Assembly (NCBI GenBank): GCA_965204375.1
Contig: OZ241986.1
Coordinates: forward strand, 3,776,001-3,840,000
Direction of reading: 5' to 3'
Length of the DNA: 64,000 nucleotides
Origin: Candidatus Latescibacterota bacterium
GTDB lineage: Bacteria > Latescibacterota > UBA2968
Position 1 is the stretch's first letter. Every line of letters begins with the position of its first letter. Positions 1 to 14,730 of the stretch are shown one piece after another. The notes beneath the pieces are model-generated. The model saw only the letters and a list, made by a program, of their open reading frames with translations, had not been told where the DNA came from and searched no databases. The translations under genes were made by a program, and so were the position numbers.

Positions 1-8
1 CTGATCCA

Positions 9-1376
9 ATGGGAAAAGAATTTGACATCACCCCTGTTAACGTACCAAAAGTCGATACAAAATATCGCCGCATTATAACGCCTGTACCCCACCCAGACTC
101 GGTGGCAACTTTGGAAACCCTGCACCGGGTAGAACCCATCTCCATGCGCGGACAACCACCCATTGTATGGGACCGCGCAGAAGATTGTCAGGTCTATGAC
201 AAATACGGCAACATGTGGCTCGACTGGAGCTCCGGCGTACTCGTCACCAATGCCGGGCACGGCATGCCCGAAGTTCGGCGTGCAATCGTAGATCAGGTAC
301 GCACCGGGCTATTGCACAACTACGTATTCCCCAGCGAAGAACGGGCGCAACTCGTCGAATTTTTGATAGAACTGGCACCAGAAGGGTTAGACAAAGCATT
401 TCTACTAACAACCGGATCTGAAAGCACAGAAAACGCCTTAAAACTCGCGCGAACGCATGGCATTTCAACCGGAGGAAAAAAGAAAATCGGCTTTGTGGGA
501 TTTGAACGCGGATTTCACGGACGCACAATGGGCGCACAGCAAGTCGGCGGAATGCCCGGACAAAAAGACTGGATCGGAAACGAAGACCCCGCCATCGTAC
601 AGGTACCCTTTCCCGACGGATATTGGACGGAAAACGTGGATTTCGACTTCTTCTGCTCTACACTCCAGGACAAAGGACTAAATGCAGACGACGTATGCGG
701 CGTCATGCTCGAAACATATCAGGGCGTGGGACCCGATTTCGCGCCTGTAGCGTACGTACAGGCACTATCTGAATGGTGCAAAGCACACGGCGCCCTCTTG
801 ATCTTTGATGAAGTACAGGCGGGATTTGGTCGCACCGGAAAAATGTGGGGATTTGAGCACTACGGCGTAACACCCGACCTGATATGCTTTGGCAAAGGCG
901 TAAGCAGTTCCTTGCCCCTATCGGGCGTAATCGGCAAATCCGAAGCCATGGACTTATACCCCCCCGGATCAATGACCAGCACCCACACGGGCAACCCCGT
1001 CTGTTGTGCAGCGGCACTCGCCAGCCTGAAAAAAATCGTAAACGACGATCTAACCGGCAATGCAGCACGCCTCGAGCCAGTATTGATGAACGGAATCAAA
1101 AAAATTCAAGCCGCACATCCCGATGTAGTCGGACACGTAACATGCAAAGGACTCGTAGGCGGCGTACAAATGGTAAAAGCCGGAGAAAAAGAACCCAACC
1201 CGGACCTGGCGCACGAAATTGTACTGCGTTGTTTTCACAAAGGACTGCTATTCTTTGCCCCTGTGGGCGCGTGGGGACAAACCGTAAAAATCTCTCCGCC
1301 CTTAACCATTGAACAAGACGCGCTCGAAGACGGCATACAGGTACTCGCTGAAGTTGTAGATGAAGTACAGAAGTAA
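9..1376 (+). CDS. Class III PLP-dependent aminotransferase (4-aminobutyrate/acetylornithine aminotransferase-like)
   Basis: 455 aa; motifs TGSES, GFHGRT, FDEVQAGFGRTG, PLP lysine in FGKG, THTGNP. Substrate not determinable. Confidence 0.9.
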   Translation: MGKEFDITPVNVPKVDTKYRRIITPVPHPDSVATLETLHRVEPISMRGQPPIVWDRAEDCQVYDKYGNMWLDWSSGVLVTNAGHGMPEVRRAIVDQVRTGLLHNYVFPSEERAQLVEFLIELAPEGLDKAFLLTTGSESTENALKLARTHGISTGGKKKIGFVGFERGFHGRTMGAQQVGGMPGQKDWIGNEDPAIVQVPFPDGYWTENVDFDFFCSTLQDKGLNADDVCGVMLETYQGVGPDFAPVAYVQALSEWCKAHGALLIFDEVQAGFGRTGKMWGFEHYGVTPDLICFGKGVSSSLPLSGVIGKSEAMDLYPPGSMTSTHTGNPVCCAAALASLKKIVNDDLTGNAARLEPVLMNGIKKIQAAHPDVVGHVTCKGLVGGVQMVKAGEKEPNPDLAHEIVLRCFHKGLLFFAPVGAWGQTVKISPPLTIEQDALEDGIQVLAEVVDEVQK

Positions 1377-1422
1377 GAGAGCTTCAACCAATCCCCAACC
1401 CCCAGCCCCTTAAGGATTTAAT

Positions 1423-2592
1423 ATGTCAAACGAAAAACGCGGACGACTGCGCGAAATAGCGGCATTATTCTTTAAACTCGGCGTAATAGGCTTTGGTGGA
1501 CCCGCAGCGCACATCGCCCTGATGGAAGACGAAGTAGTTGAAAAGCGCGCGTGGCTATCGCGCGAGCGATTCTTAGACCTCGTCGGCGTAACGAGCATCA
1601 TCCCCGGCCCAAACTCGACGGAAATGGCAATACACCTGGGATTCTTGCGCGGCGGTTGGATCGGCCTATTACTGGCTGGCGGATGTTTTATATTCCCCGC
1701 CGTTACATTGACAACAATCCTCGCCTGGGCCTACATGACTTATGGCGCCATCCCAGAGGTTGCCGACCTGCTCTATGGCATCAAACCAGCGGTACTCGCC
1801 GTCATTCTGGGCGCACTCTGGCGGCTGGGCCAAAAAGCTGTAAAAGGCTGGCGACTGAGCTTCCTCGGCCTGGCTGTGATGCTCGTAGCCCTCACGCAAT
1901 TTAGCGGCGTCCTCGCACTGATTGGCGGTGGAATCATCGGGATGTTCTGGCTGAGAATGACGCGACCAAGAGACCGCGAACACATGGCCGTAATAGCACC
2001 TGTGGCTGGCACGGGATTGACAATGCTCGCAAGCCAGGGCGCCGTATCCGCAGCAGGACCAACACTCTGGGCACTGGGCCTATTCTTTCTAAAAATTGGC
2101 GCAATCCTCTACGGCAGCGGATACTTACTCATTGCATTCCTCGAAGAAGAACTTGTACAGGGATATGCCTGGCTAACCCAGGAACAATTGCTGGAAGCCA
2201 TTGCCATCGGCCAGTTCACGCCCGGACCCGTATTATCGACCGCAGCCTTCATCGGTTATCTCGTCACCGGCGGCAAATTATCCGGCGCACTCGTCGCTGC
2301 TGGCGCGATCTTCTTGCCCTCCTTTATCTTTGTCGCTGCCCTGAATCCCCTCTTGCCCCGGCTGCGCGAATCTGAATGGGTGGCGTCATTCCTCGACGCC
2401 GTAAACGTCTGCGCCGTAGGATTGATGGCCGCTGTAACAATAGAACTGGGCTATCTAACCCTGGATTCAATACCCAAAATGGCAATCGCAGGCATCGCAT
2501 CCATTCTGATATTGTGGCGCGGAATCGGCGCAGTATGGCTGGTCGTTGGCGGCGCCGTTGTGGGTTGGATCATCCTCGCCGCGGGCTTTTAG
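1423..2592 (+). CDS. chrA: Chromate efflux transporter (CHR family, long chain)
   Basis: Two hydrophobic repeats with FGGPAAHIA, PGPNSTEMA and GQFTPGP signatures. Confidence 0.9.
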   Translation: MSNEKRGRLREIAALFFKLGVIGFGGPAAHIALMEDEVVEKRAWLSRERFLDLVGVTSIIPGPNSTEMAIHLGFLRGGWIGLLLAGGCFIFPAVTLTTILAWAYMTYGAIPEVADLLYGIKPAVLAVILGALWRLGQKAVKGWRLSFLGLAVMLVALTQFSGVLALIGGGIIGMFWLRMTRPRDREHMAVIAPVAGTGLTMLASQGAVSAAGPTLWALGLFFLKIGAILYGSGYLLIAFLEEELVQGYAWLTQEQLLEAIAIGQFTPGPVLSTAAFIGYLVTGGKLSGALVAAGAIFLPSFIFVAALNPLLPRLRESEWVASFLDAVNVCAVGLMAAVTIELGYLTLDSIPKMAIAGIASILILWRGIGAVWLVVGGAVVGWIILAAGF

Positions 2593-2594
2593 GG

Positions 2595-3485
2595 ATGAAC
2601 CAGGAATATCTCAAACCCGAAGTCGTCTCCCGGCTCGCGCGCCTGGACCTGATCGCCCGCATGGTCGTCGAAGGATTTATCACTGGCCTGCATCAAAGCC
2701 CCTATCACGGATTCTCCGTCGAATTTTCCGAATACCGGCAATACATGCCGGGTGACTCACTGCGCGACCTGGACTGGAAAGTATTTGGCAAAACCGACCG
2801 CCTCTACGTCAAACAATACGAAGAAGAAACCAACCTCAAATCCCATCTCCTCATAGACGCCAGTGCCTCAATGGCATATCGCTCGGACGCCATCACCAAA
2901 TTCCAATACGCATCTTACACCGCAGCCGCCCTCTCCCACCTCATGTTGCGCCAGCGCGACGCCGTCGGATTAATCGCCTTTGACGACCGCATTCGCACGT
3001 ATCTGCAGCCCCGCTCAGTCACCAGTCATTTGCACACCCTGCTGACCATGCTCCAAAACACCAGCCCCGAAGGCACCGATACCGACCTTGCCGCCACCTT
3101 TCACGAACTGGCAGAACGCATTGTGCGCCGCGGCCTCGTCATCGTCATCTCCGACCTCTTCGACGACCCGGATCGCCTGCTCAACGGCCTCAAACACTTT
3201 CGCCATCGCAACCACGAAGTCATCGTCTTCCACATCCTGGACCCCCGAGAGCGCGACCTCGACTTCAACCGCGAAATGCGCTTCGTCGATCTCGAATCCG
3301 GCACGCAAATCGCCACAGAACCCTGGCACCTCGCACCCGAGTACCGCGACCACATGGAAACCCTCATCGATCGCTTTCGCCGCGAATGCCGCGAAGCCAT
3401 GATCGACTACGTCCTCCTCGAAACCTCAGAACCCTTTGACACCGCCCTCTTCAACTACCTCGCAAAACGCAAAAAATTGATGTGA
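2595..3485 (+). CDS. DUF58 / vWA-like protein (usual MoxR partner)
   Basis: GLHQSPYHGFSVEFSEYRQYMPGD, DWKVF, KQYEEE, DASASM, ISD motifs. Start moved to the ATG at 2595, just after the chrA stop. Confidence 0.88.
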   Translation: MNQEYLKPEVVSRLARLDLIARMVVEGFITGLHQSPYHGFSVEFSEYRQYMPGDSLRDLDWKVFGKTDRLYVKQYEEETNLKSHLLIDASASMAYRSDAITKFQYASYTAAALSHLMLRQRDAVGLIAFDDRIRTYLQPRSVTSHLHTLLTMLQNTSPEGTDTDLAATFHELAERIVRRGLVIVISDLFDDPDRLLNGLKHFRHRNHEVIVFHILDPRERDLDFNREMRFVDLESGTQIATEPWHLAPEYRDHMETLIDRFRRECREAMIDYVLLETSEPFDTALFNYLAKRKKLM

Positions 3486-3492
3486 AAAAAAC

Positions 3493-3528
3493 CAAACCCC
3501 CATCGCAAAAATGCGCGATGGGGGTTTG
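3493..3528. terminator. Hairpin terminator between convergent genes; left border of the peptide cluster
   Basis: Perfect 14-bp stem CAAACCCCCATCGC / GCGATGGGGGTTTG with an A-run on the left and TTTG on the right. Confidence 0.8.
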
Positions 3529-3550
3529 TATGTGCTATCGTGTACATGCC

Positions 3551-4570
3551 TCAAAGAGCCTTCAAAACATTCTTCAAAATACGCTCTTCCCTTTGAGAAA
3601 TATCATCTAACAAGGTGATAATCTTCAGAATACGATCCACATCCCACGTTCTCTTAATCTCCCCTAACGCTCGCAATTTAAGCATCATCAGATGAACCTG
3701 ATGCGCCTTGTGCTCAACCTCTTTGTACGCCTGATGAAACTGGTCTGACGGACGCAAATACCCGCGATCCTCCAGATAAGCAAGCCTATCCAACATACAA
3801 CGCTTGTGCTCCCAAAGCGTGAATAAATGCCGCCGATCCCACAACCGAGGATGGACAAACAAATGCGTAAAGTAATCTCGCAAAAGCTTATACGTCGCCA
3901 TCCCAAAGACGCCTTCAACTGGCTTGCACAACGTCCGGTAGTGGAGAGACGGATTCTCAGAATGGATGTAGGCTCGCAACTGGTCAATGACAGCATCAAT
4001 ATCAAACTCATAGATACCGTCCTCATCATACTCAAAAAGAGTCACCAGGTACGATCTGGGTTTCTCGGGATCAATCCAGCGAAACGCCGCTTCAAATTCT
4101 GAATATGCAACCCTTGAAACAGCGTAACTCCGCGCTCGATTGAATCCCAGAGTCTCAAGCGTTTCTGTATCGTCATCGTATCCGAATACCATAATAGCAT
4201 GCGGATGATGAATTTTCTCATAAAATGATGTATGCGGCAAGAAATACTCATCGGCAGTTAACTGGACATAGAAGCCCTCATCAATTTGATCGCGAATAAA
4301 CGGCACAATCTGGTTATATACTCTGACGATTGATCGCCTTGGAACAGTGTAGATAGACAGCCACGGCGGGGAGTACTGGCCTTGAAAATAGAAGTTGAAT
4401 CGGATGTTATGTTTGTTCTCATGCAACAGGTCAACGGCGAATAGCTGTATGTAATTGCAGAAGAATCAGGGAATATAATCATCCTGAAGTGACATAATCG
4501 AAAGCCGATAGCCATGTCGAGGATAGCCGTGTATGGGTGGGGATACCTGGATGGGAAGTGTTTTTTTCAT
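3551..4570 (-). pseudogene. BtrH-like (papain/NlpC-fold) protein with one in-frame TGA at codon 35
   Basis: The frame from ATG 4570 reads MKKTLPIQVSPPIHGY...DDYIP*FFCNYIQL and continues in frame into the 291-aa ORF. DEYFLP..HHPHAIMVFGYD resembles the BtrH_N motif. Stop at 4466-4468. Confidence 0.65.
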
Positions 4571-4622
4571 AATATGTCTCAAAAGCTATGCCATCTGAGT
4601 GCGAGCGAAAAATCTATTCTGT

Positions 4623-4889
4623 CTATCCGGCAGCAGGTACCTTCTGTCGTGCTGTGCGAACATAATCAGCCATGGTCTGTACGCTATCAAACAGTTCCAC
4701 GCGCAACTCTTCATCTGGTACTTCAATGTCAAATTCCTCTTCCAGACCCACAATGATCTCAATAGTCGCCATTGAATTAAGCCCCAGACCACCGCCAAAA
4801 AGCGCGTCGTCATCGTCAATTTCTTCTGCATCAACTTCAAGAGACAACGTGCGAATGATCACCTGTTTGACCCGATGTTCAATAGACAT
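4623..4889 (-). CDS. Acyl carrier protein
   Basis: 88 aa, acidic; GLGLNSMATIEIIVGLEEEFDIEVPDEEL with phosphopantetheine Ser39; strong RBS AGGAGGG. Confidence 0.9.
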   Translation of the reverse strand: MSIEHRVKQVIIRTLSLEVDAEEIDDDDALFGGGLGLNSMATIEIIVGLEEEFDIEVPDEELRVELFDSVQTMADYVRTARQKVPAAG

Positions 4890-4897
4890 AACCCCTC

Positions 4898-6799
4898 CTA
4901 TGCGATAGTTGATGTATCATCCTTTGAAAAATATTGAATCACAGTTTCCACAAGACGCTGTTGACCCGTCTCTGAAAGAATCTCAATCGCGGGCACACAA
5001 AAATTATCTTCTAATTTTTTTAGGTGACAATTAATTTGAGATTGTGCCATCTTTTTGGGCGTGATCATACTGCGCCCATAAGCTGTTCGGATATGTTTTT
5101 CGTGGTCTCCCATCGCGAGTAAGATAGTCGGTGCTTTGCACACGGCACGTATGCCATCAATTGTATCTCGGATGTATTCTTCTGCATCAATGCTGTTGAC
5201 CACCAGAATACAGGCATCGGGTTTTACCCCCAGTAAAAACGCCAGTGAAGACAAGCAATGTGTGCTGTGTTCCTGGACATGATAGGGAATGGTCCCCGAC
5301 TGAGAGCCTGTCAGGATAATATCGGGCTGTGTGCGCTGGCAAATCTCCCGAATTTTGTAATCCAGATACGGTATGTAATGTTGAAATGGCAGTTTGAGCG
5401 GCGAAGCGTAGCCCATTGGAAAAGCAGCATCCATGCCAAATAGCCGAGAATGGTGCTCTGTGCCAATCTGCCCGACTTTATAGCCCTTTTTGATGAGTCT
5501 GCGCCTGAGCGCAAGTTGCAAAGTGAACTTGCCCTGCTGAGAACTCGTGCCCATCACAGAAAGCACTGGCACATCTACAGGCGGGAGCGTGTTGAAATTT
5601 TGAATGGCCTGTGTGATTTCTTCTCTATGAATGTGAGGATAGGCAAGGCGCAGTCCCTTCTTATCCGCTGTATCATACAGATCGCCGTAAACGGTTGGAT
5701 CAAGTGCCTGAAAACTGAACACATGACATTCCTCATCAAGAGCCAATTGCACATATTCTCTGAGCAAATCGCGCTTGCGGATGCGAGATAGTTGATCCAC
5801 ATAGCCGAGAATGAGCGTATCTGCATCTGCCATTGTGTGCCGGATATTCGGGCTAATCCGCAAATTTACCTGAGATTCGCCAATCACCTTACTCGCATCT
5901 TTGCCCACTATCCCCTTTCCAATGGGGTCGGCGACACCGACAATCTCAAACGCGAGCAAATCGCGATAGCGCACCAGACTGTGCATCTCTTTGTTATACG
6001 GATACAACACGGCTTTCTTGATATAGGCATAGTCCTCTTGAAAATCTTTTTGGTGTGACTGAAGACCAGATTTGGACTTATTTTGACCTTGAGATATTTC
6101 GTTTAATGCTTTTTCTTTTAATAATAATCGAATATCTTGAACCGAACATTTTGGATGCTGTTCCAACAGGTGTGCGATAATACCCGTGATATGGGGTGCG
6201 GCAAAGCTGTTTCCTCCGGTCATAATATGTTTGCCGTTTAACCAGCACACGCGCTGTTCATCCCCTCGCGCTACACATTCGATGCGCTGATCTTCGCGGT
6301 AATAAAATCCATCTGCTTCATAAATCGCACCACCTGTCACACCAATCACTTCGGGAAATACCGCAGGATAACTCTCACGTCCGTCATTACTCTCAGCAAC
6401 TACGAGAATTACGCCAGCATCAATTGCTTTGCGGCACACCTTTTGAAGAGATTTCTTAAACGTCACATCCGTCGTGCCCAGGCTCAAATTCACCACATCC
6501 ATCTTGTTGTCAATGCACCACTGAATCGCCGCAATGAGTGCCCGTCCATCTGCCATCAAAGATGCATCAAAAATCCGCACGCTATAAAGTGCTGCATTAG
6601 GGGCCTTCTTGCGAATAATTCCAGCACACGCCGTACCATGCCCTGCACAGTCGGCGTGGTTATCTAAAAATACAATCCCACATTCTTCACCAACCTGAAT
6701 ATGAATACCACCCGAAATTTCACCTACATCAGGATGCGGAGCGTCTATGCCGCTATCGACAATGGCAAGCCGGATTTGAGAGGGATTTTCTTTAAACAT
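4898..6799 (-). CDS. S8 subtilase fused to a DUF1611 / TIGR04066-like P-loop domain
   Basis: Triad motifs AIVDSG, GHGTACAG, GNSFAAPHITG; C-terminal VMGTSSQQGKFT and GSQSG; no signal peptide. Confidence 0.82.
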   Translation of the reverse strand: MFKENPSQIRLAIVDSGIDAPHPDVGEISGGIHIQVGEECGIVFLDNHADCAGHGTACAGIIRKKAPNAALYSVRIFDASLMADGRALIAAIQWCIDNKMDVVNLSLGTTDVTFKKSLQKVCRKAIDAGVILVVAESNDGRESYPAVFPEVIGVTGGAIYEADGFYYREDQRIECVARGDEQRVCWLNGKHIMTGGNSFAAPHITGIIAHLLEQHPKCSVQDIRLLLKEKALNEISQGQNKSKSGLQSHQKDFQEDYAYIKKAVLYPYNKEMHSLVRYRDLLAFEIVGVADPIGKGIVGKDASKVIGESQVNLRISPNIRHTMADADTLILGYVDQLSRIRKRDLLREYVQLALDEECHVFSFQALDPTVYGDLYDTADKKGLRLAYPHIHREEITQAIQNFNTLPPVDVPVLSVMGTSSQQGKFTLQLALRRRLIKKGYKVGQIGTEHHSRLFGMDAAFPMGYASPLKLPFQHYIPYLDYKIREICQRTQPDIILTGSQSGTIPYHVQEHSTHCLSSLAFLLGVKPDACILVVNSIDAEEYIRDTIDGIRAVCKAPTILLAMGDHEKHIRTAYGRSMITPKKMAQSQINCHLKKLEDNFCVPAIEILSETGQQRLVETVIQYFSKDDTSTIA

Positions 6800-7517
6800 G
6801 ACATTCTCTAACTAATGATGGTGAATCCATGATCTTGCATTCCACATCAATGATTTCCTTTTTTTTCCAATCAACCAACACACGCAATGTGTCATCAGCC
6901 TTTCTTGGCTTCCAGCGATACTCAAAGACGCTTATGCCATTCATTTCAACAGCATCATACCCATAACTGCGTTCATTTCGGAGTGTGCGAATATAATCAT
7001 GGCGAGCAAAATAGGGTTGTGCATCTATATGCTTCACAATAGCTGGCAGATAATTTTCCATCAAAAGATTGGTACCTGGTATCGCACGAAATCCATAGCG
7101 TTTGTAAAGTGGAATTCCTTTTCGATTGAACGACCAGGTCGTAATTTCGATGCGTTTACAATCAGATCCACAGACAGTTCTCAAACACGCATCCCCCAGT
7201 GCCAGTCCAAAAGTTCCGCGCCTCTGAAAATCAGGATGGGTTTCTACATGAGAAAAAATGAGCACACCAGACTCAGATTTCTTCTGAGTTATTTTCATGG
7301 ATGAAATGATCCGGTGATTTCGCTTGAGTAAATAGATGACCGAGTGCTCTAAGTTGCTCAAGTCCTCAATAATTTCTTCACAAGTAGGCAGGCATTCAGA
7401 GTTGGGCTGTCTTTGAAAAGCATTTGAAGACAAGGACCAGTGTTGTGTCTGAATATCTCTCAAAAAGGTAGCATAGTGATGTAAATCGTTTTTGCTTAAG
7501 GGATGAATTTGAAACAT
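6792..7517 (-). CDS. GNAT family N-acetyltransferase with C-terminal extension
   Basis: VETHPDFQRRGTFG (motif A) and NRKGIPLYKRYGF (motif B). Start assigned to MFQIHP at 7517; overlaps the next gene by 8 nt. Confidence 0.8.
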   Translation of the reverse strand: MFQIHPLSKNDLHHYATFLRDIQTQHWSLSSNAFQRQPNSECLPTCEEIIEDLSNLEHSVIYLLKRNHRIISSMKITQKKSESGVLIFSHVETHPDFQRRGTFGLALGDACLRTVCGSDCKRIEITTWSFNRKGIPLYKRYGFRAIPGTNLLMENYLPAIVKHIDAQPYFARHDYIRTLRNERSYGYDAVEMNGISVFEYRWKPRKADDTLRVLVDWKKKEIIDVECKIMDSPSLVRECHV

Positions 7518-7542
7518 CTTTTTTCTTTCAAAAATGTAAAAA

Positions 7543-8283
7543 TCACTTGCCGACGATATAGCCGCCATACAGAAATCCAAGAAGAGGTGTAATAGTGACA
7601 TTAATATTTGCAGAACTATGAAAAGCCATACATAATAGAAGACTGCGCTTAGATTCGTAGAGATAGGTTAAAAAACAGGCAAGCACTGTCAATGTGATCA
7701 AGTGCAACAAAAATAAGTCCCAATAACCCTCTATGATATAAGGCCATAAACGCTTATGTCGAAAAACAAAGATTGAAATACTAATGACATAAGCCTTAAA
7801 TTTTCCATATTTTGTCCTGATCGTTCCGTAAAGCAGACCTCTGAAAAGAAGCTCTTCTTCAATTGGTGCTAATATAACCCCTCCAATAAAAAGCCATAGA
7901 TACTGAAAAACAAAATCTGGCGGTTGGGCACCGAAGCCTTCCCAAAAATTAAGGGGTAAATAATACGCTGTTAGACCTATACCTGCATATATCCAGAAGA
8001 AGAATACGCGTTTAGGGGGAATAGCATAATACACCATTTTCTTTAACTCAAACCGTCCGAATTGAATCAAAACAAAAAGCACTAAGAGAAGATGCATTCC
8101 TTGCATAAGTACATTCACGAAACCCCTTGGTGGCGATACAAGTCTCCACACAATCACACCTTCCAGGATAATTAAACAAGACCAGATCAAACCTTTTGCC
8201 AAAGGCACCTGAAGTGCTGGCGGCCAGTTCTCTTGTATAGATTCCGTTTTAGAGGCTTCTTCAATTGATGATTCTGGAGCCAT
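7543..8283 (-). CDS. CPBP (CAAX / Abi) intramembrane metalloprotease
   Basis: APIEEELLFRG, FVFRH and HSSAN motifs; multiple TM helices. Confidence 0.88.
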   Translation of the reverse strand: MAPESSIEEASKTESIQENWPPALQVPLAKGLIWSCLIILEGVIVWRLVSPPRGFVNVLMQGMHLLLVLFVLIQFGRFELKKMVYYAIPPKRVFFFWIYAGIGLTAYYLPLNFWEGFGAQPPDFVFQYLWLFIGGVILAPIEEELLFRGLLYGTIRTKYGKFKAYVISISIFVFRHKRLWPYIIEGYWDLFLLHLITLTVLACFLTYLYESKRSLLLCMAFHSSANINVTITPLLGFLYGGYIVGK

Positions 8284-8302
8284 AGAATAATTCCAATTCA
8301 GT

Positions 8303-8995
8303 TTAATCCAGTTTGTTGCTCAACATCTTAAAACTTTCGTCTGTCAATAAAAATTTGAAAGCCGGCTCTTTGTGAATTTCTTTTTTTCGGGCAGGATCCC
8401 ACTGGAGTGCTCTTTTTAAGCTTGAAAGAGTCTGTTCTTTATTTTTCATTGCTCCATATACCCGGGCTAAGTTATACCAGGTATTACCATCTTTGGGGTC
8501 CAGTTCAATTGACTGATCTAATGCTATGATTGCTTCGGATAATCTACCTGATTCCAGAAATACAACCCCTCTGTTGTTCCAGGCATTAGAATATTTGGTG
8601 TCAAGTTCTAAAGCGCGATCAAATGAAAGAAGTGCTTTATCCAACTCGCCCATTTTTCCCAAAACAGTACCTCGATTATTCCATAATATAGATGCTTGAG
8701 GTAGTATTTGAAGTGCCTGGTCATAAACTTTAAGTGCGTCTTGATTTTTTTCTTGTCCGCTATAAATCAAGCCAATAATGTTCCAGGCAACCTCATTTTC
8801 GGGATTTAATTTGACTACCTGTTGATAGACTTTCAAGGCTTCTTCAACGGCACCAATCTTCAAAAACTTGTTTCCTTTTTTTGACAAAATTTGAGCTTGT
8901 CCACGAGATTTATAAGGTTCGAAAATAAAATTCGCAAAATAATAGAAAGCAACGGCATGTACAAGGGGAAGGCACAGCAGCAGAAACTTTTTCAT
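8303..8995 (-). CDS. Membrane-anchored or secreted tetratricopeptide repeat protein
   Basis: N-terminal hydrophobic segment followed by about five TPRs (AWNNRG, WYNLA). Confidence 0.88.
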   Translation of the reverse strand: MKKFLLLCLPLVHAVAFYYFANFIFEPYKSRGQAQILSKKGNKFLKIGAVEEALKVYQQVVKLNPENEVAWNIIGLIYSGQEKNQDALKVYDQALQILPQASILWNNRGTVLGKMGELDKALLSFDRALELDTKYSNAWNNRGVVFLESGRLSEAIIALDQSIELDPKDGNTWYNLARVYGAMKNKEQTLSSLKRALQWDPARKKEIHKEPAFKFLLTDESFKMLSNKLD

Positions 8996-9216
8996 TACAG
9001 CATTCTTTCGTCTATCTGGACAGGGATAAGGGGAATCTGGGATAAAATACTTGATTCATTAATTCATGTCAACGCGCTGAGAATGTTAAAATGTATCGAC
9101 AAGAGCCTTCGGGGACTGAGAAAACTGCTCACGGCTTTCAGATTGGACAAAACCTGTGAACGATTATGCTTTTCACCATGCGCTGATAGTCAAAATTTAA
9201 CTTATCCTTGACAGAT

Positions 9217-9627
9217 TTAATGAGGCAAGCATTGAGGGCAATAACCAGAGTCCTGAGGGGGAGGGGTAGGCTCCCCCCCGGGGGGGAGAGGAATAGCTAT
9301 ATCAATTGACGCACCGGGCGCTGAAACATTGACCCTTAGAGTATCTACTTGTGTGCTATCACTAGCTGTTTCAATCCATATTGGTGAACTTAAATCAAAA
9401 GTGATGCGGTCACCAAGGTCTCCTGTAAGAGTCTGTGTCCATCCCCTCTCCGTTGTCTGCACACCCGTACTTGTAATTACAGCCGTACTATCTGTAGCAG
9501 TAGAGTCAGGATCTGCCGGTGTATTAGGCGGTGTATAAGGATCAGGCTCCTCGTCCTCACCAGAATAGGCAAGAACGTTTTCCAAACTGCCCATCCGTTG
9601 AGGTTTATGCAACTTTACAATTTTCAT
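9217..9627 (-). CDS. Putative precursor or exported substrate peptide, 136 aa
   Basis: RBS AAGGAG before ATG 9627; basic leader MKIVKLHKPQRMGSLENVLAY followed by an acidic Pro/Thr/Ser-rich body and terminal CPQC; directly downstream of the ABC exporter. Confidence 0.65.
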   Translation of the reverse strand: MKIVKLHKPQRMGSLENVLAYSGEDEEPDPYTPPNTPADPDSTATDSTAVITSTGVQTTERGWTQTLTGDLGDRITFDLSSPIWIETASDSTQVDTLRVNVSAPGASIDIAIPLPPGGEPTPPPQDSGYCPQCLPH

Positions 9628-9682
9628 TGTGTTTCTCCTTTCAAAGAAGTGAGTACTACAGCCCCCGAAGGCCAGGTTTATA

Positions 9683-11398
9683 TCATATACTCGCTGTTTT
9701 TTCATACAAATGAGCATAAACTCCATCTTGCATGGCTAACCACTCGTGCGTTCCCCGCTCTGCAATCTGTCCCTCATCCAATACCACAATCTCATCTGCA
9801 TTTTGAATGGTTGAAAGCCGATGTGCGATGATGATGGTTGTCCTACCTTGTCGCACGGTTTTCAATGCTTCTTGAATGTGATATTCAGACTCCATATCCA
9901 ATGCGGCAGTGGGTTCATCTAAAATCAAGATGGGTGTGTCCATCAACAGCACACGCGATAGGGCAATGCGCTGTTTCTGTCCTTCTGACATCTGCGCGCC
10001 CTGTTCACCCACCAGTGTTTCATATCCTTCGGGCAATGAAGCGACAAAGTCGTGGATGTACGCAGCCTGTGTCGCAGCCTGAACATCTCGCAAAGGTATG
10101 TCGTGTCCAAAGGTCAGGTTGTCTAAAATACTGCCCTGAAACAAGGTGCTGCCCTGCATGGCAAATCCCACCTGTTGCCGAATGGATTTCAAGCGATAGT
10201 TCCGAATATCGTACCCATCAATAGACACATATCCCTCTTGCGGGTCGTAAAATCTCGGGATCAATTTGGCAAGCGTTGATTTGCCAGATCCACTCTTGCC
10301 AACCAGTGCAATGGTGGCTTGCGCAGGGATGTGCAGGTCAATATGGCGCAAAACGGGTTGATCTTCTTGGTACGAAAAACACACATTGTGAAAACCGATC
10401 TCACCACGCACCTGAGGCAATGCAGGCATATCGGAACGATCCTGGATTTCGGGTCTCAAGTCATAGACTTCAAAAAACCTATTGATGCGAACCAATGCCA
10501 TTTCAACCTGTCCCACAAGGCCGATGAGATTGCCGATTGGACCGTAGAGATAACCCACATACCCCGAAAAAGCCATATAACTGCCCAGAGAGAGATTGCC
10601 CGATAGAACTTGTGTCCAGCCATACCAGCCATAAGCCAAGGTGCCTGCTGTTTTTACCAACGCCCCTACAAATCCAAATCCACCACTTAAATGCGTTGAC
10701 CGGATTCGCAATTTTGCAACATTGAGAAAAATGTCTCTGAGCTTGTGATAAAACGCGGCTTCCAGTCCCAGTGCTTGCACGGTGCGAATGCCCGAAAGCG
10801 ATTCGTAGGACTTGGCCGATAATTCGGCAGATGCTTCGGTCAATTTTTTAGAAACCCTGCTAAGGTATTTTTTTGACACAATAATCAATACGGTATCAAA
10901 AGGCAGTACCGCCAGACTGAGTAAGGCGAGTTTCCAATTGATGTAGAGCAAAATGGGCGGAAAAATGAGCAACTGAAGCGTGTTCATAATCAAACTGTTC
11001 ACCATCCCAATGGTACTGCCGATGGATCTGTCCATATCCCTGAAGCGAGACAGGATTTCACCCGTCTGCCGATTGTCAAAAAAGCTGAAGTCCTGTGATT
11101 GCACATGGGAGTAGAATCGAGATTTGAAATCCAGCCCCATGTTGACACCCACATAACGCGCAAAATAAGTGCTTAACAATCTTGTAAAACCCAACCCCGT
11201 CGAGAGTACAGCACCTATAATCAGGATAAAGGTCAGGAGTGTGGAGTCTTTGTGGGGATACACGTCATCAATCAAAACCTTGGTGATGTATGGCCCTGGA
11301 ATTTGCAAGAACATGACCATGATGCCCACGAGAAGAGACTGAAAGATAAACCGCCAGTAAGGACGGAGCATTTTGATGATTTTGAGTATCTGACGCAC
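9683..11398 (-). CDS. ABC exporter, fused permease and ATPase, no C39 peptidase domain
   Basis: N-terminal TM domain; Walker A GKSGSGKS, signature variant MSEGQKQR, Walker B ILILDE, IAHRLST. Confidence 0.92.
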   Translation of the reverse strand: MRQILKIIKMLRPYWRFIFQSLLVGIMVMFLQIPGPYITKVLIDDVYPHKDSTLLTFILIIGAVLSTGLGFTRLLSTYFARYVGVNMGLDFKSRFYSHVQSQDFSFFDNRQTGEILSRFRDMDRSIGSTIGMVNSLIMNTLQLLIFPPILLYINWKLALLSLAVLPFDTVLIIVSKKYLSRVSKKLTEASAELSAKSYESLSGIRTVQALGLEAAFYHKLRDIFLNVAKLRIRSTHLSGGFGFVGALVKTAGTLAYGWYGWTQVLSGNLSLGSYMAFSGYVGYLYGPIGNLIGLVGQVEMALVRINRFFEVYDLRPEIQDRSDMPALPQVRGEIGFHNVCFSYQEDQPVLRHIDLHIPAQATIALVGKSGSGKSTLAKLIPRFYDPQEGYVSIDGYDIRNYRLKSIRQQVGFAMQGSTLFQGSILDNLTFGHDIPLRDVQAATQAAYIHDFVASLPEGYETLVGEQGAQMSEGQKQRIALSRVLLMDTPILILDEPTAALDMESEYHIQEALKTVRQGRTTIIIAHRLSTIQNADEIVVLDEGQIAERGTHEWLAMQDGVYAHLYEKTASI

Positions 11399-11400
11399 AT

Positions 11401-12681
11401 TCAGTTCCTGGTCTGTACGTTTTCGAAAGATTCTTCCAACCGATAAATCTCAGGGTGCCCAATTTTGCCCACGGTTTTCAAAAACTTCTTCCACAGCAAG
11501 TCAACGATGGGACCGCGCTCTGTCACGATCTTGGCTTCCACACCCATGCCATAAGCAAGCGGACATTCTCCGTCAGATAAATGAGGATCTATCACGCTGA
11601 TCTTCACCGGATATATAGTACTCATACCGCCCGGTACAAGACCGGCACCCATAGGTGTGATAGGTTCGGGTTTTCTCGGTACGTCTGTCACCCTTCCCTC
11701 AAAAATCTTGTATTCCATGTGGGGAAAAGCATTCACATATATCCGCACCTTATGTCCTTCTTTCACCTTTGGGATATCCACTTCTTGGATCATCACCTCA
11801 GCTTGCCAACTGTGCAATTCGGCCAACTCAATCACTGCTTCACCCGCCTCAATGCGGTCGCCCTCGCGCTTGTCCAAATCGCGCGTCAACACAGTTCCAG
11901 AAACAGGCGCGTATATCTTCATCTGTTCCAGACGTGTTTTGACAAGACGATGGCTGACCTGTAATTTTTCGTACGTCTGTTTTAACATCTCAAGTTCCTG
12001 CTTGCGAGTGTCCAGAGCAGCCAATCGCCGTTTTGTCCGCTCAATTTCTACTTCTGCATGCTGCACTCGCGTCTGATGTACTCGAATGGGAATCAACGTA
12101 TCAACAGGCGGCCGCACACTCCCATCCTCGCGATAAGGCGCGTATTTACGATAGATCTGGTATTCCTGCCGAACCTGTTCCAATTGTAACTGCGCGGTCT
12201 CGTATTCCACTTCAGCACGCGCAATCTCTGTCTCCAAAACAGCACGCTCGCGTTGCAATTCTGCGACCAGAGCCACACGCCGACTTTGATTCATCGCCAG
12301 TTCATGTTCGAGTTGCTCCAATTCCGTGCGTAAATCGGTATCATCCAATGTCAGCATCAAATCACCCTGTTCGATCTCTCGTCCGTGTTGCACATGAACC
12401 GTTTGGATCAAGCCTGATCGTTGCACTTTCACTTCATAACGCGCAGTGGGCTGCAAACGACCTTGTCCTGCAACCGTTATTTCCATGCCCAGATGCCAGC
12501 CCAAAAGACCAATCAGCGCGACCATGCTTCCCACAACGCACAAAATGGTGAGCAAGAAATAGCGCACAAACCGAAACCCAATCCCCGAAGTTGGTAGGGC
12601 TTCCTGTGCCTCTGTGTTTTCCAAAGACACTTCTTTTTGGGGATAACCATTAAATCTTACAACCTGTTCACTATGTGCCAT
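11401..12681 (-). CDS. HlyD family membrane fusion / periplasmic adaptor protein
   Basis: Single TM, long coiled coil, IYAPVSGTV, terminal GMGVEAKIVT. Confidence 0.9.
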   Translation of the reverse strand: MAHSEQVVRFNGYPQKEVSLENTEAQEALPTSGIGFRFVRYFLLTILCVVGSMVALIGLLGWHLGMEITVAGQGRLQPTARYEVKVQRSGLIQTVHVQHGREIEQGDLMLTLDDTDLRTELEQLEHELAMNQSRRVALVAELQRERAVLETEIARAEVEYETAQLQLEQVRQEYQIYRKYAPYREDGSVRPPVDTLIPIRVHQTRVQHAEVEIERTKRRLAALDTRKQELEMLKQTYEKLQVSHRLVKTRLEQMKIYAPVSGTVLTRDLDKREGDRIEAGEAVIELAELHSWQAEVMIQEVDIPKVKEGHKVRIYVNAFPHMEYKIFEGRVTDVPRKPEPITPMGAGLVPGGMSTIYPVKISVIDPHLSDGECPLAYGMGVEAKIVTERGPIVDLLWKKFLKTVGKIGHPEIYRLEESFENVQTRN

Positions 12682-12732
12682 AACTCAGCCCACTGTTAAA
12701 AGTGAATTAGACCAGGCGAATGCACATTCAAC

Positions 12733-13452
12733 TCAAACATCTTCCGAAAACGCCTGAATTTCTCCGCGCATAACTTTTGTGCGGTACTCGGTAGGCGGCA
12801 TTCCGTGTATGGTCTTAAAAGCCTCGCGCAAACGATTTGATGAAAGAAACCCGCATGCACTTGCAATTTCATAAACGAATATTGAAGGTTCTTTTATCAA
12901 ATGCTGTGCTCGTGAAACCCTGATCTCCCTCAATTTTTCTGAGAAAGTCTTGCCCACATGTTTTTTGAACAGTTTGCAACCGTGCGACCTGGAAAACCCG
13001 AAATGGTTCATGACGTCATCAAAGCTCAGTCCTGGATCGCTGTAATGCTCCTCCAAAAACGACTCAAAACTCCTTTTTATCCAATCAGGAGAAGGCATAA
13101 ATTTTTTGACCTTCGCCAAAAATTTATCCTTGCAGATCGGTTTATCCAGCATGCCTACAGCTCCCAGCTTGAACATTCTTTCTGTTGATTCCAGGCGTTC
13201 AGTCCCTCCTATAATCAGGACATTTGTTTGAATTTTCTCGACCTTTAGACAAGCCAAAAGAGATATCGCATCGAGGTCTCTTATATCTTTGTCAACCACA
13301 GCGAGATCGATCTTCTCGCGTCTCAAAGTTTTAAACCCTGCTACCCCATCTCTCGCTGTGAATACATCGTAAAGTTCATCGCTCAAGTATTCACAAAGAG
13401 CCGATATAGCACAGGAGTCGCGATCTACAATCAGAACCTTCTGCTCGCTCAT
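12733..13452 (-). CDS. Response regulator, receiver domain plus AraC HTH
   Basis: KVLIVD..DLAVVD..KPI receiver; FKKHVGKTF..EIASACGF..FKTIHGMPPTEYR AraC domain. Start MSEQK at 13452 with GGAG RBS. Confidence 0.85.
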   Translation of the reverse strand: MSEQKVLIVDRDSCAISALCEYLSDELYDVFTARDGVAGFKTLRREKIDLAVVDKDIRDLDAISLLACLKVEKIQTNVLIIGGTERLESTERMFKLGAVGMLDKPICKDKFLAKVKKFMPSPDWIKRSFESFLEEHYSDPGLSFDDVMNHFGFSRSHGCKLFKKHVGKTFSEKLREIRVSRAQHLIKEPSIFVYEIASACGFLSSNRLREAFKTIHGMPPTEYRTKVMRGEIQAFSEDV

Positions 13453-13523
13453 ATTTGTCTCCGTACGCCAAAAATTTCTACACCCATATTCAAAACATGC
13501 GCCTTGCACTTAGACAGATATAC

Positions 13524-13539
13524 GCAACCTGTGTGCCAA
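13524..13539 (-). promoter_or_regulatory. Sigma54-type -24/-12 promoter for the peptide cluster
   Basis: The minus strand reads TTGGCACACAGGTTGC, matching TGGCAC-N5-TTGC, about 70 nt upstream of the first gene. Confidence 0.7.
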
Positions 13540-13704
13540 CGTGATCTTTTTAAAGAAAAATGTTTGTAAACCATTATTTTCATTGCGTATAGAATTATTA
13601 TCGCGCAAAATTTAGACCGGATATCGCATTAACAAAGTGAAACCATTGTTCACCTGTCCCTGAACAACTTGACGCCCTTTGCACCTCATGCGCTTTAATT
13701 CGCA

Positions 13705-13733
13705 TTGACAATCGCGCCTGGGGTCGCTACATT
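13705..13733 (+). promoter_or_regulatory. Sigma70-type promoter
   Basis: TTGACA-N17-TACATT. Confidence 0.6.
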
Positions 13734-13739
13734 AGTTCA

Positions 13740-13816
13740 GCTTTCTCAAGTTACCAGCTTGAGATATTTACCGCCGCTGACAGATGACTTAGCCGAGTCT
13801 TGTCAGCGGCTCTTTT
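13740..13816 (+). ncRNA. Candidate small two-hairpin RNA ending in an intrinsic terminator
   Basis: Hairpin TCTCAAG/CTTGAGA, then GCCGCTGACA/TGTCAGCGGC followed by TCTTTT. Directly after the promoter, with no + strand gene following. Confidence 0.4.
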
Positions 13817-13964
13817 ATGATAATACTGTCACGCCTGTAAATTCAACTCAAAAAGTCCCCGCGTATTTGTGATTTCCACCGCGTATTTCTGTTTTTTTTA
13901 ATTTTGAGGTTAGTACATAAAAAAACTGTGAATGGATTATTTTCCCATCCACAGTTCGCAAACA

Positions 13965-14021
13965 CTGGATCGCGACTCAACATCATGCCGCGATGACGGG
14001 CGAGGCATGCCTTGCCCCTAC
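13965..14021 (-). repeat. REP-like composite palindrome, copy 1
   Basis: CTGGATCGCG.CTCAACA.CATGCCGCGATGACG plus GGCGAGGCATGCCT.GCCCCTAC; near-identical to 50833-50889. Confidence 0.8.
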
Positions 14022-14037
14022 GGTTGTATCTCATGTC

Positions 14038-14697
14038 TCACCGCCTTGTAGAACCAAAAAAATTTGTCTTCAAATCGATCTTCTTCCCAACCCGGTTACC
14101 CACCAGCCCGCGCGCACCTGCAATATCAAAATCCTTCAACGCAATCTCAAACTCGCCCTTCACCACAAAAAAATCCCCTGGCGCGCGCTTCTTTGTCTGC
14201 TCTGACGCCAGCAAATACGTCGCCTCAAAGGGAATCTCCATCTCCTTATCCACCCCGTGCAGTGAAAACGTCCCCATAGCCAAACCCTTAATCACAGCCC
14301 TATCTTCTTCTGCCTCCACAGACACATCCTTCAACCCCGCAAACTCAAACCCAATCACCGGAAACTGTTTTTCATCCAACCAATCCGCGCTATGCAAATG
14401 CGCGTCGCGCTTCTCGATACCCGTCTCCATACTCGCAACCTGCACCTCAATCTTCCCCGTCATACCCTCCACATTTGCCGGATCCAGTTTCAACTCACCC
14501 GAAATCCCCGACGCTGTACCGTGGATCTCCTCCAGCGGAGCCGAACTCACAAACTGAATCTGATTCTTACCCACCTCATTGCGCAACACAATCGTCTGAA
14601 CACCCTCAACCGGCAACCCCAATGACGTCTCTGCACAGACCTGCTGCACTGCAACACACCCGATGAATAATAAACCAATGATCCATCGCATATTCAT
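14038..14697 (-). CDS. YceI family lipid/polyisoprenoid-binding protein, secreted
   Basis: Signal peptide; SMETGIEKRDAHLHSADWLD..FP.I.F and LHGVDK motifs. Confidence 0.88.
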   Translation of the reverse strand: MNMRWIIGLLFIGCVAVQQVCAETSLGLPVEGVQTIVLRNEVGKNQIQFVSSAPLEEIHGTASGISGELKLDPANVEGMTGKIEVQVASMETGIEKRDAHLHSADWLDEKQFPVIGFEFAGLKDVSVEAEEDRAVIKGLAMGTFSLHGVDKEMEIPFEATYLLASEQTKKRAPGDFFVVKGEFEIALKDFDIAGARGLVGNRVGKKIDLKTNFFGSTRR

Positions 14698-14730
14698 ACT
14701 CTGTCTCCTTCTCTAATAATACTCAAATGA

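Follow-up and report, generated by a model that had tools for sequence, protein, structure and literature searches.

A radical-SAM-free cassette in Candidatus Latescibacterota pairs a protease-DUF1611-like fusion with a carrier protein and may mature and export a leader-bearing ribosomal product

The nearest described system to the gene cluster that concerns us here is the CLI_3235-type cluster of Firmicutes, which is itself biochemically uncharacterised. In Table 3 of PMC10731318 it comprises a radical SAM enzyme (TIGR04068), a TIGR04066 protein, a TIGR04069 protein, a subtilisin and an ATP-binding cassette (ABC) transporter, and that table agrees with the composition that a sequence-only reading of our DNA had given; the SacP23 cluster of Paenibacillus polymyxa is an example (PMC10731318). 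Our cluster has ten genes, all on the minus strand and head to tail, in positions 3551-13509 of a 64,000-nucleotide stretch of a Candidatus Latescibacterota genome (contig OZ241986.1, positions 3,776,001 to 3,840,000; hereafter, the window), with operon bounds of 3493-13538. It shares with the CLI_3235 type a TIGR04066-like P-loop protein, an adjacent small carrier protein, an S8 protease, an ABC exporter and a leader-bearing precursor. Unlike that type, it has no radical SAM enzyme, its S8 protease and TIGR04066-like protein are fused, its acyl carrier protein (ACP) is an ordinary one rather than TIGR04069, its precursor matches no NCBIfam family, and it adds genes for a BtrH/CtaG-fold protein, a GNAT, a CPBP protein, a TPR protein and an HlyD protein. 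Judged by sequence, it is a relative of the CLI_3235 type, not a member.

Four other systems each hold a piece of the picture. QhpE, as described in PMC7876137, is a subtilisin-like protease of the cytoplasm that takes off a leader ahead of ABC export, and S8 removal of a leader in the cytoplasm followed by export through a C39-less ABC protein would be common to our cluster and to the maturation of quinohemoprotein amine dehydrogenase (QhpC/QhpD/QhpE/QhpF); the window differs in having no QhpD, QhpG or dehydrogenase subunits, an unrelated product and a protease fused to a DUF1611-like domain. CtaG, BtrH, AsbE and MllDE are, in the account of PMC12865890, papain-fold ligases that take carrier-protein-bound donors and use a Cys-His-Asp triad. 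To the CtaG-like ligases (CtaG, BtrH, AsbE, CcbD, MllDE; structures 9qvj, 7yn1, 9dkr) our last gene is linked by the papain-like N-terminal half and helical C-terminal half predicted for its intact paralog, by the adjoining carrier protein gene, and by sister loci that hold a bona fide BtrH_N+DUF4872 protein or a BtrH_N-PCP-C protein (PCP, peptidyl carrier protein; C, condensation domain), but the triad Cys is not conserved in the window's family and the known members act in non-ribosomal pathways.

The remaining two concern acyl transfer itself. GNATs acylate RiPPs (peptides made on the ribosome and modified after translation), the goadvionin donor being ACP-bound and the selidamides being acylated by a GNAT, according to PMC8784127. 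A ribosomal peptide with GNAT acyl transfer is a theme that our cluster may share with the acylated RiPPs (selidamides, goadvionins, lipolanthines), but those contain enzymes that form lanthionine or avionin, leaders of the NHLP or Nif11 kind, and polyketide synthases (PKS) or fatty acid synthases, none of which the window has, and the window's main candidate transferases are a DgcN-fold domain and the CtaG/BtrH-fold protein. DgcN, given in PMC12363236 as a DUF1611-family N-acetyltransferase of D-glutamate catabolism (7xrj), has the fold of the whole C-terminal domain of our fusion protein, which differs from it in being joined to a protease and paired with an ACP.

In the literature that we searched, supplements lying outside its scope, there was no paper on this cassette architecture or its leader, and the portions of the Latescibacteria RiPP literature at hand offered only generic antiSMASH categories. 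What, then, is the cluster for? We hold it reasonably probable that it is a leader-guided, radical-SAM-free maturation and type I export cassette for a ribosomal product, centred on a protease-acyltransferase fusion and a dedicated ACP. The sequence-only reading had proposed a RiPP-like maturation and export cluster built on acyl transfer; what it observed is partly confirmed here, and its interpretation is partly supported.

The ten genes and the fusion protein at their centre

Gene content was assigned by Pfam and NCBIfam scans of the window proteins, in a study that covered positions up to about 18300. The ten co-oriented genes between a sigma54-type promoter and a terminator, first picked out from the letters alone, are all present, and the domain scans agree with the order and contents then given to them (the GNAT marginally). 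The scans also bear out the claim that no radical SAM, LanB/C/M, YcaO, nonribosomal peptide synthetase or PKS domain is found among the ten proteins. The features, in the order of transcription, are these:

13524-13538, minus strand: sigma54-type -24/-12 element TGGCACACAGGTTGC, upstream of the regulator gene (pattern match)
12733-13509, minus strand: response regulator with REC and AraC-type helix-turn-helix domains (Response_reg 56.1, HTH_18 62.2, HTH_AraC 50.8 bits)
11401-12681, minus strand: HlyD-type periplasmic adaptor (HlyD_3 54.6, HlyD_D23 49 bits)
9683-11398, minus strand: ABC exporter of 571 residues, permease plus ATPase (ABC_membrane 140.7 bits, residues 21-287; ABC_tran 107.7 bits)
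9217-9627, minus strand: precursor open reading frame (ORF) of 136 residues, with AAGGAG 8 nt upstream of its ATG
9565-9627, minus strand: precursor leader, residues 1-21, MKIVKLHKPQRMGSLENVLAY, conserved among homologs
8303-8995, minus strand: TPR protein (TPR_1 128.7 bits) with hydrophobic N-terminal segment MKKFLLLCLPLVHAVAFYYF
7543-8283, minus strand: CPBP (Rce1-like) intramembrane protease-family protein (Rce1-like 55.2 bits)
6792-7517, minus strand: GNAT-fold acyltransferase of 241 residues (Acetyltransf_1 21.6 bits against 20.7, marginal)
6080-6799, minus strand: S8 subtilisin-like protease domain of the fusion, residues 1-240 (Peptidase_S8 88.2 bits, cut-off 21.8)
4898-6037, minus strand: DUF1611/TIGR04066-like/DgcN-fold P-loop domain of the fusion, residues 255-633 (DUF1611 36.0-36.8 bits, cut-off 25)
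4623-4889, minus strand: ACP of 88 residues (PP-binding 43.5 bits, cut-off 20.8)
3551-4570, minus strand: divergent BtrH/CtaG/CcbD-fold gene of 339 codons, ATG at 4570, in-frame TGA at 4466-4468 (codon 35)
3493-3528, minus strand: intrinsic terminator-like hairpin (15 pairs, 9 of them G-C) with T-run, tail GTTTTTTT, at the operon end

The fusion protein (633 residues; 4898-6799, minus strand) begins with a domain that belongs to peptidase family S8 by its Pfam score and by its triad of D15, H54 and S198, which is invariant in 12 of 12 aligned fusion homologs. In the AlphaFold model of the whole protein (predicted local distance difference test, pLDDT, 76.6), VIA-align finds a subtilisin fold here, with Z up to 25.9 and with the leader peptidases NisP, EpiP and 4zoq among the matches; against the QhpE model (NF049966), the domain reaches 153.2 bits, under the cut-off of 165, and is not counted as a member.

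The second domain clears the DUF1611 cut-off, as the sequence-only reading had expected, and takes the DUF1611/DgcN fold over its full length: by VIA-align, residues 253-623 match the DUF1611 structures 2g0t (Z 28.8, root-mean-square deviation 3.0, 317 residues aligned) and 2obn (Z 27.1) as well as DgcN itself (7xrj; Z 23.5, 306 residues aligned, 18% identity). Its Walker A motif, G417-T426, is invariant in the same 12 homologs. Of the two structure comparisons, VIA-align alone showed the fold of this domain, the Foldseek list for the whole model being filled by subtilisins, and a sequence search of the PDB with the domain by itself returned only 2g0t, at E 0.15. Against TIGR04066 it scores 137.8 bits (E 4e-40) along model positions 1-360 of 361, and the cut-off is 200.

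Directly after the fusion comes the ACP, which keeps its phosphopantetheine serine in all 72 rows of the alignment. It fits generic ACP models better (PRK07081, 67.1 bits against 72) than TIGR04069 (16.8 bits, cut-off 70), and membership in TIGR04066 and TIGR04069, which the sequence-only reading had put forward for scanning, did not hold for either protein. A search of the genome for partners acting in trans, suggested at the same time, gave one phosphopantetheinyl transferase (72 bits) and no member of TIGR04068 (best 161 bits against 500). The acyl-transfer theme of that reading is strengthened by the DgcN fold, by the CtaG/CcbD fold of the last gene and by the invariant ACP serine.

A shared leader on unrelated cores and the spread of the cassette

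RiPP systems are defined by a conserved leader on hypervariable cores, often in several copies and with a leader peptidase and an exporter close by. In its general form (conserved leader, variable core, adjacent leader peptidase and exporter), the window's cluster has that pattern. The 136-residue ORF, which had been described from the letters as leader-bearing, matches no Pfam or NCBIfam family and has six relatives; among the seven, the leader region is rich in invariant residues (within residues 1-27: M1, I3, K5, L6, K8, P9, Q10, R11, G13, V18, A20, Y21, S22, E24 and E27), and the core varies. In the window's own precursor, the core of 115 residues is acidic, rich in Pro and Thr, and ends in CPQCLPH.

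The leader is not confined to these seven. When the N-terminus was searched for at all loci (the loci are described below), the same motif was found to head otherwise unrelated ORFs: M..L.KP.(R/K), then 5-12 residues, then V.A(Y/Q/C/H)..E. The pattern matches 58 times on the cassette strand and 3 times on the opposite one, the two strands being equal in residue totals, and a stricter form matches 29 times against 0. From Met to Tyr the leader runs to 19-22 residues in most cases, and a Glu stands at +3 in 29 of 56, a position that the search pattern left unconstrained. The cores that follow (24-138 residues) are mutually unrelated and fall into four groups: peptides 24-28 residues long that contain 4-6 Cys; hydrophobic peptides of 44-56 residues, rich in Gly/Ala and set in tandem arrays; peptides of 35-65 residues that are acidic and aromatic and contain 2-6 Cys; and Cys-poor proteins of 88-138 residues, among them the window's precursor. 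Ten family precursors compared with the NCBIfam precursor models gave no match at E up to 10, the presence of TIGR04065 in that library being unconfirmed.

The C-terminus has its own small story. The precursors of the window and of locus L012 (about 2340-2376) share a terminal DSGYCPQCLPH (window 9217-9250) on cores that differ, and His is the last residue in six of the seven family members. A CaaX-like role for the terminal CLPH was considered and dropped, as there is no prenyltransferase beta subunit and other family members end otherwise; the TPR protein does score 53.9 bits on a PPTA repeat model, with no single stretch passing, and we judge this to be general TPR likeness.

How widespread is the arrangement? 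At least 618 homologs of the fusion were found at E up to 0.001 among 8000 candidates scored, and both Pfam domains are present on one polypeptide in nearly all of the 120 that were listed. Scanning one genome per species gave 129 places confirmed by tblastn, of which 78 loci were kept; they come mostly from Candidatus Latescibacterota, with a few from Gemmatimonadota, KSB1, Cytophagia, Marinilabiliaceae, Gammaproteobacteria and Poribacteria. The cassette is common in Latescibacterota from sponge-type metagenomes. Within the phylum, the DUF1611-like domain (E up to 1e-20) occurs in 87 of 168 genomes, in 17 of the 20 from the window's genus, with up to 7 matches per genome, most of them lying in open frames of about 630-700 residues; stops flagged inside some of these matches are natural stop codons at gene ends.

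Two sponge data sets hold sequence close to that of the window. One sponge metagenome has DNA contigs of at least 95% likeness, and a sponge metatranscriptome run (X18) has contigs 95-99% alike over 3698-4376 and 4765-4900, that is, in the BtrH-fold gene and at the junction of the ACP and fusion genes, which shows that a close relative is present in the RNA library and does not show transcription.

For the synteny, ORFs were called in the 78 loci, the window and a paralogous cluster described below (80 regions, 79 of which have the fusion gene) and searched with the window proteins; genes were counted in the 65 loci that have 4 kb or more on each side. The sequence-only reading had made its case depend on conserved synteny in other genomes, and such synteny is found: an ACP follows the fusion gene in 61 of the 65, an ABC exporter is present in 57 and a BtrH-type gene of any of three kinds in 45, followed by HlyD (28), the REC-AraC regulator (24), CPBP (21), TPR (12) and GNAT (11). 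In the slot after the ACP, 30 loci have the divergent BtrH-like gene, 12 have a bona fide BtrH_N+DUF4872+Peptidase_C39_2 gene, and 4 have a fusion of about 900 residues, BtrH_N-like-PCP-Condensation, whose N-terminus matches the bona fide BtrH_N genes with a probability of 93.9% in hhalign. Other subtypes bring in redoxin, rhodanese, MauE, a six-bladed propeller, RND pumps, Yip1, a GT28 glycosyltransferase or a solute-binding protein.

A radical SAM gene is not part of the usual company. ORFs of at least 200 residues with a CxxxCxxC motif lie within 9 kb of the fusion gene in 9 cases, and 6 of these, among 79 loci, are radical-SAM-like: those of L059 and L044 are Radical_SAM+SPASM by Pfam, three more are their cluster mates, and that of L074 matched no Pfam family. 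With a radical SAM near only about 5 of 79 loci, the radical-SAM-free form is the norm for the family and not a remnant, as the sequence-only reading had maintained for its cluster.

The window's genome also offers a comparison of its own. A paralogous cassette 84 kb upstream (G000:C1:3692056-3701972; locus L008, 4036-13970) has genes for REC-AraC, HlyD, ABC, a 136-residue leader ORF unrelated to the window's (a protein of L079 bridges the two through its N-terminus), a different CPBP, the fusion, the ACP, an intact BtrH-fold protein and a second regulator. Between the two cassettes, the maturation proteins are close in sequence (fusion 88% identical, ACP 92%, BtrH-fold 90%), whereas regulator, HlyD and ABC are only 36-62% identical (ABC 62%). 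The same contrast appears among genomes. The window's chromosomal slot (window 1-14700; YceI on one side and DUF58/VWA, a chromate transporter and an aminotransferase on the other) recurs in L011, L009 and L015 with the same maturase end and different precursor and CPBP modules; the window type of CPBP accompanies the window type of precursor, and another CPBP type accompanies other precursor types. Such swapping of a precursor with its CPBP is typical of toxin-immunity or substrate-protease pairs.

Smaller irregularities are scattered among the loci. L015 carries two cassettes in tandem at the shared slot. In L012 (about 1700-10000), TPR-CPBP-GNAT modules are triplicated, with GNAT fragments of 62-64 residues, a sign of decay or rearrangement. 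Split genes, a further such sign, are seen for the BtrH-fold protein in L054 (12123-13180, two ORFs), the fusion in L028 (7900-11200), and TPR and CPBP in L017 (7704-9253). Elsewhere in the window's genome, at G000:C1:3598812-3607992 (L089, L090), two radical SAM/SPASM-like genes that score 84-157 bits on TIGR04068, under the cut-off, have as their neighbour a third REC-AraC regulator, which shares 48% identity with that of the window; the same 200-kb stretch thus probably contains a further peptide-maturation cluster.

A possible maturation route, its weak points and its rivals

From what is observed (gene content, folds, conservation, the pattern of leader and core, and a broken last gene), we infer a route, including its cleavage site, its acyl donor and acceptor, the order of its steps and the roles of the CPBP and TPR proteins. 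The 136-residue precursor would be recognised through its 21-residue leader, and the S8 domain, acting like QhpE in the cytoplasm, would cut after the conserved V-x-A-Y. Subtilisins have hydrophobic S4 and S1 pockets, which V at -3, A at -1 and an aromatic residue at 0 would suit, and for this reason we place the cut after A20-Y21. (A predicted complex of the fusion with precursor residues 1-60 scored 0.00, which speaks neither for nor against binding.) By analogy with DgcN, the fused domain and the holo-ACP would then place an acyl or aminoacyl unit on the product; DgcN uses acetyl-CoA, and the phosphopantetheine arm is also the arm of CoA. The most economical acceptor would be the amine just exposed, beside conserved acidic residues. 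The CtaG/BtrH-fold protein, and in the window's subtype the GNAT, might form further amides by transfers for which a carrier protein or CoA is needed. The C39-less ABC transporter and HlyD would export the product, on which the membrane CPBP and the anchored TPR protein would act, or against which they would protect.

A bolder version of this route is one that we offer tentatively: the family as a whole might be a new ribosomal-thiotemplate hybrid class, in which the fusion removes an LxKPxR...VxAY leader and then caps or extends the new N-terminus from its private ACP, with CtaG/BtrH-type ligases or a condensation domain adding carrier-bound units, on cores from 24-residue Cys-rich peptides to proteins of 115-138 residues. 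If so, amide-bond machinery known until now only from non-ribosomal pathways would act on gene-encoded products, with many cassettes per genome in the mostly uncultured Latescibacterota, and there is a fair chance that this is the first ribosomal context for thiotemplated papain-fold ligases. The route itself, should it hold, would extend CtaG/BtrH-type carrier-protein ligases from non-ribosomal to ribosomal substrates, give TIGR04066/DUF1611-type "peptide maturation" proteins their first functional context, and define a widespread maturation system with its own leader family. The conserved leader would be a handle for mining and for heterologous production of diverse, possibly acylated gene-encoded products, and the exchange of precursor and CPBP at one slot would suggest a biology of antagonism or self-protection in communities.

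The last gene is where the window copy is damaged. The sequence-only reading saw a BtrH-like gene; the fold upholds the likeness (CtaG/CcbD/BtrH), and the extent then given, a 291-residue ORF from a TTG at 3551-4426, does not stand, the gene starting at ATG 4570 and being broken at codon 35. The paralog, 90% identical and intact, has TGG (Trp) at that codon, and Trp stands there in 16 of 16 aligned homologs, so the TGA is a Trp-to-stop nonsense mutation. Logan contigs from two runs of one sample (depth 8 and 28) have no other letter at the TGA site, which makes an assembly slip unlikely as the cause; that sample is probably the source of the assembly and hence no independent witness. Translation that began again at the TTG of codon 49 would, by the reading frame, yield a protein lacking residues 1-48. 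The stop lies before the N-terminal papain-like part, and the CtaG/BtrH step is therefore probably lost in the window copy.

As for what the intact protein may be, the model of the paralog, which like that of the fusion is of middling confidence (pLDDT 73.5), is predicted to have the bipartite fold, papain-like then helical, of the CtaG-like ligases. Its Foldseek matches have E from 6e-8 to 2e-6 (AziU2-U3, 8gs1, 6e-8; 9qvj, 2e-7; 7yn1, 7e-7; 9dkr, 1e-6), and the AziU2-U3, CtaG and CcbD structures, including CcbD solved with a PCP, align over 285-352 columns with TM-scores of 0.45-0.53. In hhalign, the family matches its bona fide BtrH_N+DUF4872 neighbours with a probability of 77% (E 2e-5), and the candidate catalytic Asp is nearly invariant among the 16 homologs. 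A search of the PDB sequences with the family's profile found nothing meaningful, that is, no sequence-level match to a solved structure.

A number of points weigh against the cassette that we propose. No chemistry has been observed, all of it being read from genes and folds. The last gene of the window copy is broken, and the TIGR04066 and TIGR04069 scores both fall under their cut-offs. So does Pfam BtrH_N (PF14399), which the sequence-only reading had listed for scanning and which gives 25.3 bits against 29.7, over profile positions 81-127 of 134 only. The BtrH-like model is poor over its first 70 residues (pLDDT about 45-56), and its top structural match, AziU2-U3, is described in PMC12865890 as functionally unrelated to the ligases. 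Of the 16 homologs, 5 have C, 10 have S and 1 has G in the column of the candidate catalytic Cys, and the candidate His is present in 14 and replaced by R in 2. No ACP-loading enzyme (adenylation, ATP-grasp or ketosynthase) is recognisable in the cluster. As for the leader, a hidden Markov model found a leader-bearing ORF in 37 of the 65 full loci, and that model is partly circular, having been built from sequences that it then finds; some 6 of the 57 seeds from the pattern are probably spurious (five lack a core and one has 584 residues).

Might two functions simply lie side by side? One would be an unmodified bacteriocin-like protein, with the S8 protease in place of C39, export by ABC and HlyD, and CPBP as immunity; the other would be a separate thiotemplated small molecule made by the DUF1611-like domain, the ACP and the CtaG/BtrH-fold protein. 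CtaG, BtrH, CcbD and AsbE do all work in non-ribosomal pathways, by the account of PMC12865890, one variant of the cassette does have a PCP and a condensation domain, and the CPBP type does change with the precursor type, as an immunity gene would. But a single polypeptide holds both the protease and the DUF1611-like domain in nearly all of the 120 homologs listed, which ties leader cleavage to the DUF1611-like domain, the ACP follows the fusion gene at almost every locus counted (61 of 65), and the loci lack any adenylation, ATP-grasp or ketosynthase gene that could provide a building block; we regard this arrangement as unlikely. A little less likely still, to our minds, is that the ACP carries the peptide itself, the P-loop domain or the S8 acyl-enzyme passing the peptide carboxyl to the ACP thiol and a ligase or condensation domain then forming a peptide or isopeptide bond, in cyclisation or ligation. 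The invariant Walker A would fit a nucleotide-using step, S8 transpeptidases have a precedent in the PatG macrocyclase, which is among the fold matches (Z 19.3), and CtaG is reported to ligate two carrier-bound peptides (PMC12865890). The difficulty is that an S8 acyl-enzyme would hold the leader fragment and not the core, and that within the DUF1611 fold a function is named for one member only, an N-acetyltransferase (7xrj).

That the cluster is a decayed, non-functional remnant of a CLI_3235-type radical SAM cluster is an idea to which we give very little credence, although the premature stop and the TIGR04066 and TIGR04069 shortfalls speak for it. Nine of the ten genes are intact and the catalytic residues are invariant; the broken gene has, apart from its TGA, no other defect and is 90% identical to an intact paralog; only 6 of 79 loci have, by motif, a radical-SAM-like ORF close to the fusion gene, the radical-SAM-free architecture is the rule, and the window genome has no TIGR04068 member. 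For the family, this reading is already largely refuted. Least credible of all is that the TGA encodes selenocysteine and leaves the last gene an intact selenoprotein. The genome does have SelB (389 bits against 242) and tRNA-Sec, and a hairpin follows the TGA (-13.1 kcal/mol, z -2.33), but the paralog's TGG and the Trp of 16 of 16 homologs, none of the homologs having Cys or TGA there, exclude it.

Accessory genes, control elements and surroundings

The export genes need few words. The ABC exporter lacks a C39 domain, as had been noticed from the letters, since its membrane domain begins at residue 21; C39-bearing NCBIfam models align to it only from model positions of about 137-171. The HlyD protein scores 91.5 bits on TIGR01843, under the cut-off. 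TPR and GNAT, which the sequence-only reading had listed as components, are accessory: the genome's paralogous cassette has neither, and both are infrequent among the counted loci. The TPR protein is, from its hydrophobic segment, probably membrane-anchored or periplasmic, and this segment together with the membrane nature of CPBP suggests that both proteins would meet the product outside the cytoplasm.

The acetyl-CoA motif of GNATs is Q/R-x-x-G-x-G/A, and in our protein F97, Q98 and G101 are invariant. By this motif and by the Pfam cut-off it belongs, marginally, to the GNAT family, and a profile of 11 homologs matched GNAT structures, the best being PaiA (1tiq, E 1.1e-5). Its start is most likely at 7517, as in the homologs, in which case it does not overlap the CPBP gene.

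The regulator gene probably starts at the ATG at 13455, and it and probably the whole operon would be transcribed from the sigma54-type element. That element, TGGCACACAGGTTGC, is the sole zero-mismatch match to TGGCAC-N5-TTGC in the 64 kb of the window; such a motif stands upstream of the regulator gene in 8 loci, and over all loci the cassette strand has 29 of them and the opposite strand 3. Since the REC-AraC protein is no activator of sigma54, an enhancer-binding protein encoded elsewhere would be needed. In L048, three identical sigma54-type elements (TGGCACGGAATTTGC) lie on the cassette strand at 1916, 5526 and 7118, two of them about 425 nt upstream of short Cys-rich precursor genes that start at 2341 and 5951.

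The flanks are housekeeping genes (an aminotransferase, a chromate transporter, DUF58/VWA, YceI and a monomeric isocitrate dehydrogenase). The cluster (3500-13500) has a G+C content of 38-48% against 52-57% in these flanks, which fits its acquisition or exchange as a cassette. On the upstream side, a second hairpin, at 13923-13957, terminates the preceding YceI gene.

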